Of a stretch of DNA of 7,496 nucleotides, positions 1 through 7,496 are shown piece by piece (position 1 is the first letter of the stretch; every line of letters begins with the position of its first letter). The translations under genes were made by a program, and so were the position numbers. The notes below the pieces were generated by a model. The model was not told where the DNA came from. It saw nothing but the letters and a program-made list of their open reading frames with translations, and did not search any database. This DNA is from a virus (taxonomy: Duplodnaviria > Heunggongvirae > Uroviricota > Caudoviricetes): the IMG/VR virus record IMGVR_UViG_2660238126_000008; one strand, written 5' to 3'.

Positions 1-330
1 AGAGATGGCCGTCGATTTAACCCCAGTGTTTTTAAAGATACTTATCAATATGGTTATACAAGCTCAGGTCAAAATACCTGGGGTGTACAAGGCTCAGTAG
101 GTATGTCTACGGGGTGGTTAGCTAATACCAGTACAGATGGTAATCATAGCCACTCACTGTCCGGCACAGCAGCATCTGCAGGTGCACACGCGCATACTGT
201 CGGTATTGGTGCTCATACGCACTCCGTTGCGATTGGTTCACATGGACACACCATCACCGTTAACGCTGCTGGTAATGCGGAAAACACCGTCAAAAACATC
301 GCATTTAACTATATTGTGAGGCTTGCATAA
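1..330 (+). CDS. stfR: Phage side tail fiber protein, C-terminal end (5'-partial; runs off the window start)
   Basis: Frame 1 is open from base 1 to the TAA at 328-330. The translation ends ...[41 protein letters not shown]...NYIVRLA, with four HxH motifs typical of tail fiber tip domains. It is followed directly by a tail fiber assembly gene and a pin-type invertase. The symbol rests on the downstream gene order (pinR-ynaE-uspF-ompN) as in E. coli K-12 Rac, recalled from memory. Confidence 0.8.
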
Positions 331-905
331 TGGCATTCAGAATGAGTGAACAACCACGGACCATAAAAATTTATAATCTGCTGGCCGGAACTAATGAATT
401 TATTGGTGAAGGTGACGCATATATTCCGCCTCATACAGGTCTGCCAGCAAACAGTACCGATATTGCACCGCCAGATATTCCGGCAGGCTTCGTGGCTGTT
501 TTCAACAGTGATGAGGCATCGTGGCATCTCGTTGAAGATCATCGGGGAAAAACCGTCTATGACGTGGCTTCCGGCGACGCGTTATTTATTTCTGAACTCG
601 GTCCGTTACCGGAAAATGTTACCTGGTTATCGCCGGGAGGGGAATATCAGAAGTGGAACGGCACAGCCTGGGTGAAGGATACGGAAGCAGAAAAACTGTT
701 CCGGATCCGGGAGGCGGAAGAAACAAAAAACAACCTGATGCAGGTAGCCAGTGAGCATATTGCGCCGCTTCAGGATGCTGCAGATCTGGAAATTGCAACG
801 GAGGAAGAAATCTCGTTGCTGGAAGCATGGAAAAAGTATCGGGTATTGCTGAACCGTGTTGATACGTCAACTGCACAGGATATTGAATGGCCAGCACTGC
901 CGTAG
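330..905 (+). CDS. tfaR: Tail fiber assembly protein (Tfa family)
   Basis: 191-aa ORF whose ATG overlaps the upstream stop (TAATG at 328-332). The protein ends ...[17 protein letters not shown], a typical Tfa/gpG-like C-terminus, and lies immediately 3' of the tail fiber gene. Confidence 0.85.
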
Positions 906-1002
906 GGTAAAACATATAAATTCTATAATTAGATGTATCTTTCCATTTACGGCAAGGAAGGGGGCTTGGAAGACGTAAAGCATCTCACACCGAGATTATT
1001 TT

Positions 1003-1593
1003 TTATATGTCAGGTGTCTGAAGTTTTGCTTTGGCTCTTAAAATGGTTTGCCGCGAGGTTTTGAATTCCCGGGCAATGGCACTTATACTTACACCTGACT
1101 TAATTCGTTCGAATACCACCTGTTTCTGTTCTTCATTTAACACAGGTGGTCGACCAAAACGTTTCCCTGCGCCGCGGGCTCTTACTATCCCGGAATGAGT
1201 GCGTTCAAGTAAAAGGTCTCGTTCAAATTCAGCGACTGCTGAAATTACTTGCATCATCATTTTTCCTGTTGGACTGGTCAGGTCAATGCCAGCCAATGCT
1301 AAGCAATGCACTCTGATACCTGTTTCGGTCAGTTGTTCCACTGTTTTCCTGATATCCATTGCATTACAACCAAGGCGATCCAGTTTTGTCACAATCAATT
1401 GATCACCACATTTCAGGCGAGCAAGCAACCGGTTAAAACCAGGACGCTCACTGGTTGCTGCTGAGCCGCTAATGTGTTCTTCGATTATTTGCTGAGGTTT
1501 GATTTTAAAACCTGCACTTTCGATTTCCCGGCGTTGATTTTCGGTGGTCTGATCCAGCGTTGATATCCGACAGTAAGCAAAAATTCGAGACAT
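1003..1593 (-). CDS. pinR: Serine recombinase, DNA invertase family (Pin/Gin/Hin/Cin-like, 196 aa)
   Basis: N-terminal YCRISTLDQ motif with the catalytic Ser, a resolvase catalytic-domain pattern ([13 protein letters not shown]...) and a C-terminal HTH region ([20 protein letters not shown]). Convergent with tfaR, ATG at 1591-1593. Symbol from remembered K-12 PinR and gene context. Confidence 0.88.
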
Positions 1594-1909
1594 AGTGAGA
1601 CTCTATACGAAATTGGTGTTCATATCATAATGCATCTCAGAAAATAATTATGATTATTTTTGTGCATATTTGTATGTACACGTTCGAAAATAAACGAATG
1701 CGTATGCAACCCCGTAATTTTGGTGAGACCCAAAATCGATTTTGTGAAAAATGGCTTTAACTCGGTTTGTTTTTCGAGTTCCGGGCGGACTCAAGGAAGA
1801 AGAATAGTGTTGCGTGTTATTTTAACCAGATTTCAAGTTGTTTGGTCGTGGAAAAGTGGAGCAAAATGTTGTTAAAGTGGAAAAATGATAAAAAAGTAAG
1901 TTTATTATA

Positions 1910-2143
1910 TTACATTTTACCATTTAAATTTTGGTTGTCTTTAAGAACTGATATCGCTGTTTGTAATAATTCTTTGTTATCCAGCCATGATTTTTTCTTT
2001 ATGTTTCCTTCAATGTAATCAAGCAATGTTCTGGTATTGATAGGTCTTCCCTGTTTTGCTACTTCCACTACAGCATTCCCTAGGATAATTCTTACTTCAG
2101 GAAGCTGCGCAGGGAACCACTTTAGGGTGTCTTTTGATTTCAT
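1910..2143 (-). CDS. ynaE: Small Rac-prophage protein YnaE (YdfK paralogue family, 77 aa)
   Basis: The ORF-track entry 1910..2176 has an internal ATG at 2141-2143 preceded by AAGGAA about 8 nt upstream (minus strand). The product MKSKDTLKWFPAQLPEVRIILG... matches my recollection of YnaE/YdfK. The longer 88-aa start at 2176 has no RBS. Confidence 0.6.
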   Translation of the reverse strand: MKSKDTLKWFPAQLPEVRIILGNAVVEVAKQGRPINTRTLLDYIEGNIKKKSWLDNKELLQTAISVLKDNQNLNGKM

Positions 2144-2250
2144 GAAGATATTCCTTAAAATATTATTGATTTTCATTGCGATATTGTATGTCTGATTCAG
2201 GATATGTTGACTTATACATCGGTTTTGTCTGGGTTATTGGATATGCCAAT

Positions 2251-2267
2251 CCCTAATTTTATTAGGG
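2251..2267. repeat. Perfect 17-bp palindrome CCCTAAT-TTT-ATTAGGG
   Basis: Read directly from the sequence: 7-bp inverted arms around a 3-nt centre, about 110 bp upstream of the ynaE start, in an AT-rich non-coding stretch. Confidence 0.6.
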
Positions 2268-2722
2268 CATGACTAAAAATGCTGAATATGATAAGGAGAG
2301 ATGTGATTATCAGTATGCTGTTCATATAGCCTCGAATTAGTAATGTGTTATATATGATATAGTTGACAATTTTTATCTTGGGTGTTCTTAAAGTTCGTAG
2401 ATAAACATTGTCGTTTCAGGTATACAGGAATGCTAACAGGTGGCAGCAAAAATCAGGCGGTTTATGGCGCAAGCTGAAGCGGCAACTGCAAACTATCTTA
2501 TGCAGAGACTCTACACAGATTGGGTTTAAAAGTATACATAGATAACAGTTTTTATCTGAAGAAGAAAAATATCAAGGTGATATAGCCTATATGCCTATGA
2601 TGCGGAGGAATGAATGTGATGGGAGTGATGTATCTGAATAGTTGAAAAACCGCAGTCACGTCGTATGCAAGAACGTGCTGCGGTTGGTTTGACTTTGATT
2701 GAGACGTTTTGGAATTTTTTTT

Positions 2723-2775
2723 GTGGCAAAAATGGGGCAAAACGCTGCAAAAGGGGCAAAAAAGGGGCAAAAAAA
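2723..2775. repeat. Array of about five phased G-rich/A-tract units (GGGGCAAAA-like, period ~10-11 bp)
   Basis: Sequence reads gtggcaaaaa / tggggcaaaa / cgctgcaaaa / ggggcaaaaaa / ggggcaaaaaaa. A-tracts recurring at roughly one helical turn are the classic signature of intrinsically curved DNA. Confidence 0.7.
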
Positions 2776-3068
2776 GAGTGGATTATCGTAGTTTATTGTT
2801 CTCGCTGATGATGTTTAACACATTGAAAAATAAGTAAAACACTTATGAGTCAGATAGTTGTGATTTTTGCCCTTACTTGTTCAGGTTGTATTGTTCTTTC
2901 TTACTAATTTCTTGATTTTGCGACATTTAAAAGCGACTCAATTCGTTATATGGCATCAGAAGAGTATGCGTCATGCCGGAACGCCCAGCATAAGAAATCT
3001 GATATAAAAACTGTGGCGTGTATGGTACGGATTAGAGGGGAAAATGTCAGCACATTTGCGAAATGAAT

Positions 3069-3095
3069 CAAAAAGCCCGCAGCAATGTGCGGGCG
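3069..3095 (-). terminator. Rho-independent terminator downstream of uspF
   Basis: GCCCGC-(8 nt loop)-GCGGGC hairpin at 3075-3094, followed on the minus strand by a TTTTT run (plus-strand AAAAA at 3070-3074), starting 7 nt after the uspF stop. Confidence 0.6.
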
Positions 3096-3101
3096 TTAGT
3101 G

Positions 3102-3617
<516 letters not shown>

Positions 3618-3643
3618 TTAGATCAAAGGAGGAAGAATAAGCA

Positions 3644-3668
3644 GAAAAAGCCCGCCATAACAGCGGGC
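3644..3668 (-). terminator. Rho-independent terminator downstream of the ompN 3' end
   Basis: GCCCGC-(7 nt loop)-GCGGGC hairpin at 3650-3668, followed on the minus strand by TTTTT (plus AAAAA at 3645-3649), just 3' of the porin stop codon at 3677-3679. Confidence 0.65.
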
Positions 3669-3676
3669 AGGAGGAT

Positions 3677-3979
3677 TTAGAACTGATAAACCAGACCTAA
3701 AGCGACAATATCATCGGTAGAGATGCCATTGGCAGCGTAGAAACTGTCATCTTCATCCAACAGGTTGATTTTATAGTCAACATAAGTGGACATGTTTTTA
3801 TTGAAATAGTAAGTCGCGCCAACATCGGCGTATTTAACCAGATCTTTATCATCAACACCTGCCGGGTTGTCTGCACCACCGGCAGCGTGCAGGTCACGGC
3901 CTTTAGACATCAGGAAAGAGACTGCCGGACGCAGACCAAAATCAAACTGGTACTGTGCCTCATGGGGTTGGCTGAACAA
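3677..3979 (-). pseudogene. ompN: Porin (OmpC/OmpF/OmpN family) C-terminal fragment, about 95 codons; 5' three-quarters of the gene absent
   Basis: Translation ...[12 protein letters not shown]...[19 protein letters not shown]...[12 protein letters not shown]-stop, including the conserved C-terminal YQF of general porins. The minus-strand frame runs into unrelated sequence above ~3962 and hits a stop at ~4019, so no N-terminal barrel or signal peptide is present. Symbol from its position next to uspF. Confidence 0.75.
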
Positions 3980-4165
3980 TGTATCCCTGTATGGTGGTTC
4001 AGTTTTAACAAACCGTGATTATCAATCTCTGGCTGCCGGCGTTGGCTTTAACCTTAACTCATTGGGTTCATTATCTTTTGATGTCACACGATCTGATGCT
4101 CAGTTGCATAATCAGGATAAAGAAACGGGTTATAGCTACCGCGCTAACTATTCAAAACGTTTTGA
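3969..4165 (+). pseudogene. Internal fragment (~65 codons) of a fimbrial usher (chaperone-usher pathway outer-membrane protein)
   Basis: Part of ORF 3867..4211 translates ...[65 protein letters not shown], matching remembered usher motifs (NWSLYGG; xSxDxTxSxAxL; SxRxxYSKRF). The first ~33 residues of that ORF are just the antisense of the porin fragment. No start codon, signal peptide or downstream usher sequence. Confidence 0.55.
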
Positions 4166-4950
4166 ATCATATCGGCAGCCAGTTTTTCACTGTTTTCCTG
4201 CTCTTTGTTGACCAGCGGGAAATACTTGTCAGACAGCAGTTCACGACCGCAAATCACCACCAGATCGTCATCGTCCTGGTAGACCACATCGATAAGCTCA
4301 TTGACGGCATCCATCACTACGGCGTCCAGGTTGGCATATTCGCCACCTTTCCCGACTTTCACCGCGCCCGGTGTGGTTTCACCGCCCGTGGTGGTGCTGC
4401 CCATGACGTGATCCGGTGCATCCTCACGGATTTTCTGCAGCCAGCCTTTGTTCACATCCTGCAGCAGCGGGTTTTCGCTACGGTTGGAGGTTTTCGCACG
4501 CTTCACGCCGTTAAAGCCGATCATGATGCGGTCCAGTGCCTGACGTTTCACGATGGCGTTACGGATACGCACCTGGAAATCCTGAAACTTCGCCCACAGG
4601 TCCAGCTTCGCGTAGGTCAGCACCGTGTCAAAGTTGGTCTGTTCGCATTTGTATTCCACATCGACCATCAGCGTCGGATCGACAGGTTCTCGCTCTTTCG
4701 CGGTGGTATCAGTGGTTCCGGCAATGGTGCTGCCAACACCCAGCCCCAGCAACTGACCAGACTGCTCAGTCACTGGCGTGACGTTAATCAGCGTCAGGAA
4801 AGCGGCGGACTGCTGGATCTGGTCTTCCAGCGTCTGCTGCACGGACGGCTCTACGGTGAACTTGCTGGACAGTTCTTCAACTGCCACACCGTTCAGACGC
4901 GCCAGCTGCTGCAGGTAAGCGTTAAAAGCAAAGCGGGTATTCTTCTTCAT
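4144..4950 (-). pseudogene. P2-family major capsid protein (gpN-like), N-terminal ~262 residues; C-terminal third missing
   Basis: Translation MKKNTRFAFNAYL...FTVEPSV...LDLWAKFQDFQVRIRNAIVKRQALDRIMIGFNGVKRA...KVGKGGEYANLDAVVMDA...KYFPLVNKEQENSEKLAADMI closely parallels my recollection of P2 gpN. After ...AADMI it reads QNVLNS-stop, which is the antisense of the usher fragment. ATG at 4948-4950 with GGAG upstream. Confidence 0.8.
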
Positions 4951-4966
4951 CGGGTTTTGTGCTCCA

Positions 4967-5800
4967 TCAGCAATTGGTCAGAGTGTCAGCGGGGGCGTTA
5001 CCGCCTGTTGCACGCTGGCGGTAGTCCTGGCGGCTGTCTTCATGACTCAGCTTATTCACCAGTTCGTTAAAGGCGGTCTGCTGTGCCTGCAGGGCAGTCT
5101 CCAGCTCAGACAGACGTTCTTCCTGCTCAGACAGGGATTTTTCGGTGCGTGCGCTCAGGTTTTGCTGCTCAGTGGCGACCAGCTCCACGGCCTTATGCAC
5201 ATCAGAGAACCGGGCATCGTCGGACTGCTCTTTTTTGGTAAACAGCGCCGTGACACGGGCAAACAGGGACGGTTTGTCCTCCTGGATTTCTTCCAGTTCG
5301 ATCACTGTTTCCTCTGCGGCGGTAAAGAGATTGGCGGGATTCTGCTTGCGGTTTGCCAGCGGGTTATGGGCTGCACTGGCGCTGAATGTCAGCATTTCCG
5401 TACCCAAACTGGCAGGGTCATCAGTGGCAGCCAGGCCGACCAGGTAGGCTTTGCCCGTATCAGCGAACTTCGGGCTGACTTCCATAGAGGTGAATAATTT
5501 CTGGCCTTTTTTCACCAATTCCACCAGGGACTCCGTTGGCTCAACGTCGGCATACAGCGCCATCTTGCCTGCCAGCGGGCCTTCCGTGATTTCTTCAGCA
5601 AACAGCGCCGTCACCTTGCCGTAACGGTTAAAGGTGCTGTCCGGGAGATAAGACTTGATGTGCTCAAGGTTAATCAGCGCGGTATACACCGCCGGGTTGT
5701 AGCTGGCTGCCATCTGTTCCAGCCATTCACGCTGGATTTCGCGTCCGTCGGTGGTGGCACCTTCCACCCCGATGCGAAAACGCTTTGCTTTCACTGTCAT
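4967..5800 (-). CDS. P2-family capsid scaffolding protein (gpO-like), 277 aa, apparently full length
   Basis: Translation ...FRIGVEGATTDGREI...INLEH...GKAYLVGLAATDDPASLGTEMLTF...SDDARFSDVHKAV...ATGGNAPADTLTNC parallels remembered P2 gpO. ATG at 5798-5800 with GGAG about 11 nt upstream. It sits directly upstream of the capsid gene (16-bp gap), as in the P2 O-N arrangement. Confidence 0.85.
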   Translation of the reverse strand: MTVKAKRFRIGVEGATTDGREIQREWLEQMAASYNPAVYTALINLEHIKSYLPDSTFNRYGKVTALFAEEITEGPLAGKMALYADVEPTESLVELVKKGQKLFTSMEVSPKFADTGKAYLVGLAATDDPASLGTEMLTFSASAAHNPLANRKQNPANLFTAAEETVIELEEIQEDKPSLFARVTALFTKKEQSDDARFSDVHKAVELVATEQQNLSARTEKSLSEQEERLSELETALQAQQTAFNELVNKLSHEDSRQDYRQRATGGNAPADTLTNC

Positions 5801-5878
5801 GAGCCGTGCTCCGTTAGAAATAACTTACTGGAGCCTTATGGTTGCGGTGATGGGGGCAGTGAAACAATGCGCGGTATT

Positions 5879-5896
5879 TGTACCGACAACCACACA
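5879..5896. promoter_or_regulatory. TGT-N12-ACA dyad, candidate Ogr/Delta-type late-activator site in the divergent O/P intergenic region
   Basis: tgtACCGACAACCACaca read directly from the sequence, centred about 87 bp upstream of the scaffold-gene ATG. In P2-family phages late promoters carry this dyad near -55 relative to the transcription start. A possible weak -10 (CATAAG, minus strand, ~5834-5839) lies in between. The transcription start is not known. Confidence 0.4.
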
Positions 5897-5942
5897 AACC
5901 GCAGGCGGGGAAAGCCTTCATTCAAGGCTGTAGGTTTGTGCC

Positions 5943-7290
5943 ATGAACACCACACTGACACCCGCAGATCTCGATCCCCGTCGGCAGGCCATGCTGCTGT
6001 ACTTTCAGGGATACCGCGTAGCCCGCATTGCTGAAATGCTGGGCGAGAAAGTTGCAACCGTTCACAGCTGGAAGAAACGCGACAAGTGGGGTGACTATGG
6101 GCCGCTGGATCAGATGCAGCTCACCACCGCCGCACGTTACTGCCAGCTCATTATGAAGGAGCACAAAGAAGGGAAAGATTTCAAAGAAATTGACCTGCTG
6201 GCGCGCCAGTCGGAGCGCCACGCGCGGATCGGCAAGTTTAACAATGGCGGCAACGAAGCCGACTTAAACCCTAACGTCGCCAACCGCAACAAAGGCCCGC
6301 GCCGTCAGCCGGAAAAGAATGTTTTCACCGATGAACAGATAGAGAAACTGGAAGAAATCTTCCATTCCTCCATGTTCAACTACCAGCGCCACTGGTGGGA
6401 AGCCGGAAAAACCAACCGCATCCGCAACCTGCTGAAGTCACGCCAGATCGGCGCGACCTTTTACTTTGCCCGTGAAGCCCTGATTGACGCCCTGCTTACC
6501 GGACGTAACCAGATTTTCCTTTCTGCCAGTAAGGCACAGGCTCACGTCTTTAAGCAGTACATCATCGACTTCGCCAAAGAAGTCGAGGTGGAGCTGAAAG
6601 GCGATCCGATGGTGCTTCCTAACGGGGCCACGCTTTACTTCCTCGGCACCAATGCCCGCACGGCGCAGAGTTACCACGGCAACCTGTATCTGGATGAATA
6701 TTTCTGGATACCGAAATTCCAGGAGTTGCGCAAAGTGGCTTCCGGTATGGCTATTCACAAGAAATGGCGACAAACCTATTTTTCCACGCCATCCAGCCTG
6801 ACCCACAGTGCTTATCCGTTCTGGTCCGGTGCGCTGTTCAACCGTGGACGCAACAAAGCTGACAAGGTGGACATCGACCTGTCCCACAGCAATCTGGCCC
6901 CCGGCCTGCTGTGCGCAGACGGGCAATACCGCCAGATAGTCACCGTGGAAGATGCGGTGCGCGGCGGCTGTAACCTGTTCGACCTCGACCAGCTGCGCAT
7001 GGAGTACAGCCCGGACGAATACCAGAACCTGCTGATGTGCGAGTTCGTGGACGATCTCGCGTCCGTGTTCCCGCTCAGCGAACTGCAGGCGTGCATGGTG
7101 GACAGCTGGGAAGTCTGGACCGACTTTCATGCACTGGCCCTGCGCCCGTTTGGCTGGCGCGAAGTGTGGATCGGTTATGACCCGGCAAAAGGTACGCAGA
7201 ACGGCGACAGTGCCGGATGCGTGGTGGTGGCTCCGCCAGCCGTGCCGGGTGGTAAGTTCCGCATTCTTGAGCGTCACCAGTGGCGCGNGA
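5943..7290 (+). CDS. P2-family terminase large (ATPase) subunit (gpP-like), 3'-truncated at the N cluster
   Basis: About 449 codons from the ATG at 5943-5945, with a Walker-A-like SRQIGATFYF and a Walker-B-like NLYLDEYFWIP. Divergent from the scaffold gene as P is from O in P2. The reading frame stays open to the window end only because of N bases; recognisable terminase sequence stops near ...ILERHQWR (~7287). Confidence 0.82.
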
Positions 7291-7299
7291 TGNNCNNCN
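7288..7299. other. Cluster of six ambiguous bases (N at 7288, 7293, 7294, 7296, 7297, 7299) at the terminase/purL breakpoint
   Basis: Read directly from the sequence (gcgngatgnncnncnt). Two further N bases occur at 7473 and 7477. Confidence 0.95.
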
Positions 7300-7301
7300 T
7301 C

Positions 7302-7496
7302 ACGCACTTCCACGCGCCCTTCACCATGAGAGACAGCAATCGGCATTTGCGAGCCCACCATCCCCTGCAACAGCAGCGACGGGCTTTGGGTCACTTCAAC
7401 CAGGCTGAAACGCGCTTCAAAGCGATCGGAGGTATTGCGCACAAAACGTGGCCACAACTCACTACCTGGGATNATTNGAGAATCGCCGGCAGGTGA
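7302..7496 (-). CDS. purL: Internal fragment of phosphoribosylformylglycinamidine synthase (PurL), glutaminase-domain region; partial at both ends
   Basis: Minus-strand translation from the window end reads ...[57 protein letters not shown], with the amidotransferase HGEGR motif, matching my recollection of E. coli PurL near its C-terminus. The M of ORF 6438..7457 is a TTG codon inside this fragment. Below ~7300 that ORF is just the antisense of the terminase gene. Confidence 0.6.

Follow-up and report, generated by a model that had tools for sequence, protein, structure and literature searches.

The window considered here (the whole stretch of 7,496 nt that was analysed) carries three head-morphogenesis genes of a P2-like phage, N'-O-P', with both outer genes truncated, and this raises the question of what such an isolated module represents. 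A decayed prophage remnant, a piece of a helper exploited by a satellite and a misassembly had all been left open in the preliminary description; of these, misassembly has gained support, while the remnant and the satellite have lost it. Judged by its sequence, the window is very probably part of a chimeric contig, and the isolated, truncated state of N'-O-P' an artefact of assembly that lacks biological reality. Misassembly is the reading chosen because the block is base-identical to an intact prophage, its neighbours are unlinked pieces of ~200 bp, a string of Ns lies at the conflicts between phage and purL sequences, and the whole source contig combines pieces from at least eight loci.

Phage DNA occupies the window from 4166 to 7287–7292 (up to 3,127 nt). 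The span first given to the block, 4144–7290, does not hold, as positions 4144–4165 are antisense usher DNA. Pfam matches and the strand layout confirm three P2-family head genes that follow the order of P2: O and N lie on the minus strand, and P is transcribed divergently on the plus strand. The major capsid gene N' (4166–4950, minus strand) retains codons 1–262 of 352 and is missing 90 C-terminal codons; its product matches PF05125 (E=2e-108, profile positions 1–252 of 327). The open reading frame runs on to 4144 (4144–4950, 268 aa), where the antisense usher DNA happens to supply six codons foreign to the capsid gene (QNVLNS) and the stop. The gene for gpO, the capsid scaffolding protein/serine protease (4967–5800, minus strand), is complete with 277 aa, precedes N on that strand with a gap of 16 nt, and its product covers the whole of PF05929 (E=2e-113). 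By family membership gpO is predicted to act as the procapsid scaffold and in the proteolytic processing of gpN. The large terminase (ATPase subunit) gene P' (5943–7287, plus strand) retains codons 1–448 of 588, and its product matches PF06056 (E=2e-27), PF03237 (E=3e-65) and, in part, PF17289, of which the first 35 of 155 positions are present. The ATPase domain is whole, and the C-terminal nuclease domain breaks off after these ~35 profile positions; the full protein is predicted, again from its family, to be the ATPase/nuclease subunit that packages DNA via the gpQ portal. Neither the window nor the rest of the 11.2-kb contig in which it lies carries the genes Q (portal), M (small terminase) or L (head completion), and their absence near the block is attributed to the assembly.

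The same genes are found intact elsewhere. The prophage at the ssrA site of E. coli A7 (NZ_CP028767.1, 3,586,444–3,608,255) has the same gene order and shows zero called-base differences across window positions 4166–7292 (3,127 nt). Its gpO (WP_000216248.1) is identical to that of the window, and the 262 and 448 residues of gpN' and gpP' are identical prefixes of its 352-aa capsid protein (WP_000742526.1) and 588-aa terminase (WP_001098431.1). The difference is that N and P are full length in A7, whereas the window copies end at joins. On the N side the A7 prophage continues with M, L, lysis genes, tail genes, D and ogr, and on the P side with the portal gene Q. About 980 further complete E. 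coli genomes share the same element. The gene index searched lists the exact gpO protein in 6,127 blocks, and in 8 of the 8 contexts examined it lies between a 588-aa terminase with portal and a 352-aa capsid with M and L. Full-length capsid and terminase genes, named in the preliminary description as an observation that would refute it, are what all these other occurrences show. The capsid and terminase of the window are indeed cut, as had been described, but the cuts almost certainly mark where an assembly fragment stopped and are no property of a genome.

Among named phages, the closest is Klebsiella phage 4LV2017 (NC_047818, Elveevirus, Peduoviridae), with 97.3% nucleotide identity over 98% of the block and the same N-O / P-Q arrangement. 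It differs in the host genus of its record, in about 2.7% of nucleotides and in the annotated start of P, which is placed 16 codons further downstream. P2 itself (NC_001895, Peduovirus; Q-P / O-N-M-L) shares the protein families, and its P and O-N genes likewise diverge from a common late-promoter region, but it has only ~69% nucleotide identity, over ~50% of the block, and phage 186 has ~67%. The suggestion of a diverged P2 relative, distinct from P2, is borne out by these values, and by sequence comparison the block belongs to the family Peduoviridae, in a different genus from P2.

The region between the divergent O and P genes (5801–5942) is where, by analogy with P2, two late promoters are expected; P2 has one shared activator site between two transcription start sites. 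Alignment of this region with the annotated activator site of P2 is poor and gives no convincing match. One copy of the TGT-N12-ACA motif (Ogr-type late promoter) is present in the region, at 5879–5896. Over the window there is no enrichment of the motif (6 copies where 2.35 would be expected; 8 of 200 shuffles reach 6), and as a late-promoter site the copy at 5879–5896 is a weak lead only.

To the left of the block, positions 1–3958 are genuine contiguous E. coli chromosome outside the P2-like element, comprising the right end of the Rac prophage remnant, uspF and ompN', with 100% identity to many complete E. coli genomes. As annotated in the corresponding stretch of strain EC21Z-014, this segment carries the Rac genes stfR' (1–330), tfaR (330–905) and pinR (1003–1593, minus strand), then ydfK/ynaE followed by ynaM, and uspF (3102–3536, minus strand). 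Tail genes, which had been described as lacking, are therefore present in the window (stfR' and tfaR, at 1–905), though they are those of Rac and not of the P2-like element. The 3' part of ompN (3677–3958, minus strand) follows, and the match ends at 3958. Outside the phage block, no part of the window other than this segment can be taken as real, continuous chromosomal sequence. Between it and the block lie 210 bp from within a fimbrial usher gene (3959–4168, plus strand). This chimeric filler constitutes no gene and is 99.1% identical to an interior stretch of a gene annotated as a fimbria/pilus usher in 3,246 of 5,426 genomes. To the right of the block is an internal fragment of purL (7300–7472, minus strand, about 175–185 bp), which is 100% identical to purL in all genomes searched, and from 7478 a fragment of the type VI secretion gene tssA, reached through an N-marked merge zone at 7473–7477.

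The whole window is included in CCBV01000312.1, an 11.2-kb NCBI draft contig of E. coli (GCA_000936365.1). This contig is pieced together from at least eight fragments of unlinked loci, with seven joins in 11.2 kb: ompN'-Rac, the usher (210 bp), the phage block N'-O-P' (3.1 kb), purL (about 180 bp), tssA (491 bp, with top matches on plasmids), pnp'-rpsO-truB-rbfA' (2.9 kb), wcaE (232 bp) and an unidentified piece of 156 bp. Around the phage block the neighbours are ~200-bp pieces from unlinked genes. In complete genomes (strains MB06173 and SW071618) ompN and the phage block are 570–580 kb apart, and in strain 503025 the usher gene is ~490 kb from purL. It resembles chimeric or mis-scaffolded contigs of draft bacterial assemblies: short fragments of unlinked loci stand head to tail, the joins carry ambiguous bases and are confined to one assembly, and split 'genes' are built from two unrelated halves. 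What differs is the density of joins, which is unusually high (7 in 11.2 kb). A literature search found no mention of the contig accession or of GCA_000936365.1.

A three-way comparison of the window, the A7 prophage and a purL reference shows that the merge zone between phage and purL (7288–7299) has six Ns, each at a mismatch between the phage and purL sequences, while its called bases, GATG, C and C, are those common to both. The purL/tssA zone was likewise compared with both of its references. Ns are present at five of the seven junctions of the contig, and at the four junctions tested against both parents, that of P' with purL among them, they coincide with parent conflicts within a pseudo-overlap of 3–12 nt. 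A low-stringency consensus merge gives just such a placement. Collapse of repeats in a de Bruijn graph was also considered as the cause of the joins and was rejected, the shared junction sequence being only 0–12 nt and imperfect. As this is too short for typical k-mers, low-stringency overlap or consensus merging, or chimeric reads, fits better.

The two joins on the left are of another kind. That between ompN' and the usher (3958|3959) is blunt, with no Ns and 0 bp of overlap, and that between the usher and the phage block (4166–4168) has a 3-bp overlap, ATC, again with no Ns. Taken alone, the sequence of these N-free joins resembles that of clean illegitimate-recombination joints, a feature that speaks against an artefact.

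Joins of this clean type, together with inserted fragments of 180–490 bp, about the size of a read or an insert, could also arise if chimeric molecules had formed in vitro (by blunt ligation or template switching while the library was built or amplified) and had then been assembled faithfully. A molecule of this origin has a single definite sequence and fails to explain the Ns at conflict positions at four other junctions, and so as the sole origin of the contig this route is unlikely. Computational merging and in-vitro chimeras could both have contributed, and by either route the structure remains artificial, with no change to the biological conclusion.

Under the favoured explanation, an assembly chimera, positions 4166–7292 would be an assembly fragment of 3.1 kb that stems from the late, head-coding region of an ordinary and widespread Elveevirus-like prophage of the P2 family, the parent of which is complete in other E. 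coli genomes and adjoins ssrA. The cuts in N and P would then be the ends of this fragment in the assembly and not deletions made in a cell. On the right, the fragment would have been merged with the ~180-bp purL piece via a short, imperfect pseudo-overlap in which conflicts were written as N, the step that is displayed in the contig itself. On the left, it would have been joined to the 210-bp usher fragment via the 3-bp overlap, and this in turn bluntly to ompN; chimeric reads or inserts may be the cause of these left joins, or else the same merging step where it met no conflicts. We infer, rather than observe, that the missing ends of N and P are elsewhere and that read support across the junctions is absent.

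Were the block instead a genuine decayed prophage remnant, deletions and rearrangements would have left N'-O-P' between the ompN/usher fragment and purL. The truncation of both outer genes, the lack of other P2-type genes in the window and left junctions that are unambiguous, with the 0–3 bp of microhomology usual in illegitimate recombination, all agree with such a history. However, there is no decay: across 3,127 nt the block agrees with an intact prophage at every called base, and its gpO is undamaged. A remnant would further need the simultaneous truncation of ompN, usher, purL, tssA, rbfA, pnp and wcaE within 11 kb, and no IS elements are found in the 11-kb contig. Its right junction lacks a definite sequence, with Ns at the parent conflicts of 7288–7299, and its left junction, although defined, enters a usher fragment of 210 bp. 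Nor do the junctions occur in any other genome or contig; none of the 5,426 complete E. coli genomes carries any of the three junctions in the window. A remnant is therefore very improbable.

An even more improbable case is that the junctions are real, with a perfectly conserved 3.1-kb head piece spliced to shards of ompN, usher, purL, tssA, rbfA/pnp and wcaE. This would imply shattering and religation, or a patchwork of captured fragments, made of 200–500-bp shards and without IS elements, and the Ns would then reflect heterogeneity in the population.

The choice of genes in the block could also bring a phage satellite to mind, since satellite P4 redirects gpN and gpO of P2, and both are represented here. 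The block would in that case have been captured or exploited by a capsid-redirecting satellite (P4-like or PICI-like), or be a helper segment retained to that end. But the window has no sid, psu, delta, alpha primase, integrase or cos, and the rest of window and contig consists of Rac-uspF-ompN, usher, purL, tssA, pnp-rbfA and wcaE, at 99–100% identity. A capsid protein minus 90 C-terminal residues and a terminase minus its nuclease domain are, moreover, not expected to work. The probability of a satellite connection is close to nil.

The finding of an assembly chimera is one of caution only, as the three genes make up a prophage head module of E. coli and Klebsiella that was known before and is very common. 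The isolated and truncated N'-O-P' should be left out of any count of prophage remnants, satellite-related elements or pseudogene sets. Other contigs of GCA_000936365.1 probably also contain chimeric joins. The joins have a further consequence, in that they yield fictitious fusion open reading frames that are now in protein databases: a capsid-usher product of 268 aa, an usher-ompN product of 100 aa and a terminase-purL-tssA product of 517 aa. In an index of 153 billion genes, the first two are each present on this one contig only.

The ORF listing and similarity searches split the window into unlinked pieces. Positions 1–3958 are 100% identical to a contiguous stretch of chromosome in many complete E. 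coli genomes, and carry, in order, stfR', tfaR, pinR, ydfK/ynaE and ynaM (the right end of Rac), followed by uspF and the 3' portion of ompN. Next come 210 bp from the interior of a fimbrial usher gene (3959–4168, 99.1% identity), the P2-type block (4166–7292), an internal piece of purL lying on the other strand (7300–7472) and, from about 7478, a fragment of the type VI secretion gene tssA. N bases occur only at 7288, 7293–7294, 7296–7297, 7299, 7473 and 7477. Two unrelated prophages are represented, the Rac remnant (1–1593), to which stfR' (the end of a Rac-type tail-fibre gene), tfaR (tail-fibre assembly) and pinR (invertase) belong, and the P2-like block. The pinR–uspF interval (1600–2900) has 32–39% GC, against about 45–55% elsewhere, and contains ydfK/ynaE and ynaM without long ORFs; it is the normal Rac–uspF region, 100% conserved in other genomes.

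The preliminary description saw here an isolated P2-family head module with both outer genes truncated, and its three gene identities are upheld by profile matches. The major capsid ORF (gpN', 4144–4950, minus strand) matches PF05125 (E=2e-108, profile positions 1–252 of 327), the full-length scaffold/protease ORF (gpO, 4967–5800) matches PF05929 (E=2e-113), and the terminase ORF on the plus strand (gpP', from 5943) matches PF06056, Terminase_6N and, for the Terminase_6C nuclease domain, no more than profile positions 1–35 of 155. P is divergent from O–N, as described and as in P2. From family membership, gpO would scaffold and process gpN into the procapsid, while gpP, together with gpM, would package DNA through the gpQ portal. 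Compared with an identical prophage in which all three genes are full length, gpO is the same at 277/277 residues, gpP' comprises residues 1–448 of 588, and gpN' residues 1–262 of 352 plus six foreign residues. Since the tail of the gpN' ORF is antisense usher DNA, the phage DNA starts at 4166 and not at 4144; it ends at 7287–7292. N and P are incomplete in the window, as claimed, but their isolation and truncation are almost certainly not a real feature.

In the divergent O/P intergenic region there is a TGT-N12-ACA motif (5879–5896), which has the form of an Ogr/Delta activator site as found in the late promoters of P2. It lies about 55 nt from the expected O transcript start. It would put the P start at about 5942, favouring the downstream ATG at 5991, where P also starts in the annotation of Klebsiella phage 4LV2017. 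The motif shows no statistical enrichment, and the region around it does not align to P2.

The divergence from P2 proper that had been noted is confirmed, with about 69% nucleotide identity over about half of the block; phage 186 reaches about 67%, whereas 4LV2017 (Peduoviridae, genus Elveevirus) is 97.3% identical. Of 5,426 complete E. coli genomes, about 980 carry the block at ≥80% coverage. In strain A7 all 3,127 positions match without a single called-base difference, the sole discrepancy being the N at 7288. There the block lies within a P2-like prophage adjoining ssrA, with full-length N, M, L, lysis genes, tail genes, D and ogr on the N side, and full-length P and the portal gene Q on the P side. 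The exact gpO protein occurs in 6,127 blocks listed in the gene index, and all eight contexts read have a 588-aa terminase and portal on the P side, and a 352-aa capsid, small terminase, gpL, gpX and holin on the N side. A satellite-related reading has no supporting genes at all and is extremely improbable. The P2-like element, abundant and described before, offers no new biology.

Four joins were aligned, the contig against both parent sequences. At P'/purL (7288–7299) the phage sequence is GGATGGACTTCC and that of purL AGATGCGCCGCA; all six mismatches appear as N in the contig, which calls the shared bases (GATG, C, C), just after an imperfectly similar 11-nt stretch. Ns likewise fall at parent mismatches at purL/tssA (7473–7477, one conflict being resolved as tssA), rbfA/tssA and wcaE/pnp. 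Ns at the mismatches of two superposed sequences are the signature of a consensus from a short, low-stringency pseudo-overlap. The two left joins have no Ns: ompN/usher is blunt (3958|3959), and usher/capsid shares only ATC (4166–4168), close to which 10 nt are imperfectly similar when shifted by one base. Chimeric reads or inserts could have produced these joins, as could the same kind of merging if no bases conflicted. Physical library chimeras, a variant of the artefact explanation, may account for these two joins, but are unlikely overall because any one DNA molecule, be it natural or a chimera made in vitro, carries one base per position; the N-marked joins are thus computational. A query spanning both left junctions (3900–4400) found no single place with ≥80% coverage in any of the 5,426 genomes. 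With 4160–7496, the best-ranked places stop at the end of the phage block (94% coverage), so in none of these genomes does purL lie close enough to be joined to the truncated P.

The chimeric 268-aa capsid product was found by gene-index look-up on exactly one contig, CCBV01000312.1 (GCA_000936365.1, 11,245 bp), as was a 100-aa usher–ompN fusion product. The window is the reverse complement of its positions 3748–11243. The contig consists of at least eight segments, with seven joins in 11.2 kb: 156 bp without an assigned locus, a wcaE fragment (232 bp), pnp'-rpsO-truB-rbfA' (2.9 kb), a tssA fragment (491 bp, best matches on plasmids), then purL, the phage block, the usher fragment and ompN–Rac. 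None of the seven joins carries an IS element. Positions 1–3770, outside the window, are also a patchwork with Ns at each join, and fusion ORFs are called there (a 415-aa pnp–wcaE and a 250-aa rbfA–tssA product). In complete genomes the pieces lie far apart: ompN and the phage block by 570–580 kb (strains MB06173 and SW071618), the usher gene and purL by about 490 kb (503025), and the usher gene and pnp by about 130 kb (120899). A literature search found no papers citing the assembly or contig accession.

The seemingly isolated, doubly truncated module is thus very probably a fragment of contig size from an Elveevirus-like prophage that is itself ordinary and probably intact; an error-prone draft assembly would have attached it to unrelated pieces. 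N and P would break off simply where this assembly fragment ended. A real decayed prophage remnant is highly improbable: the block shows no decay, its right junction is undefined, the junctions are found on this contig alone, and seven more core or accessory genes would have to be broken within 11 kb.

The late region of the A7 prophage is complete. Directly beyond its portal gene lie an IS3 and unrelated genes (24587–26238 of the A7 locus), and the annotation shows no integrase, repressor or replication region nearby, so this copy may itself lack the early region. In each of the other identical-gpO genomes (loci L012–L019, positions 1–1040) the slot just past Q holds a different cargo: reverse transcriptase, GmrSD, KAP NTPase, HIRAN protein, AAA_15/AAA_21 ATPases or a DprA-like protein. 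A7 also has a reverse-transcriptase gene beside ogr (1590–2505). This cargo, all of it outside the window, looks like that of the variable hotspots for anti-phage defence known from P2-like prophages.
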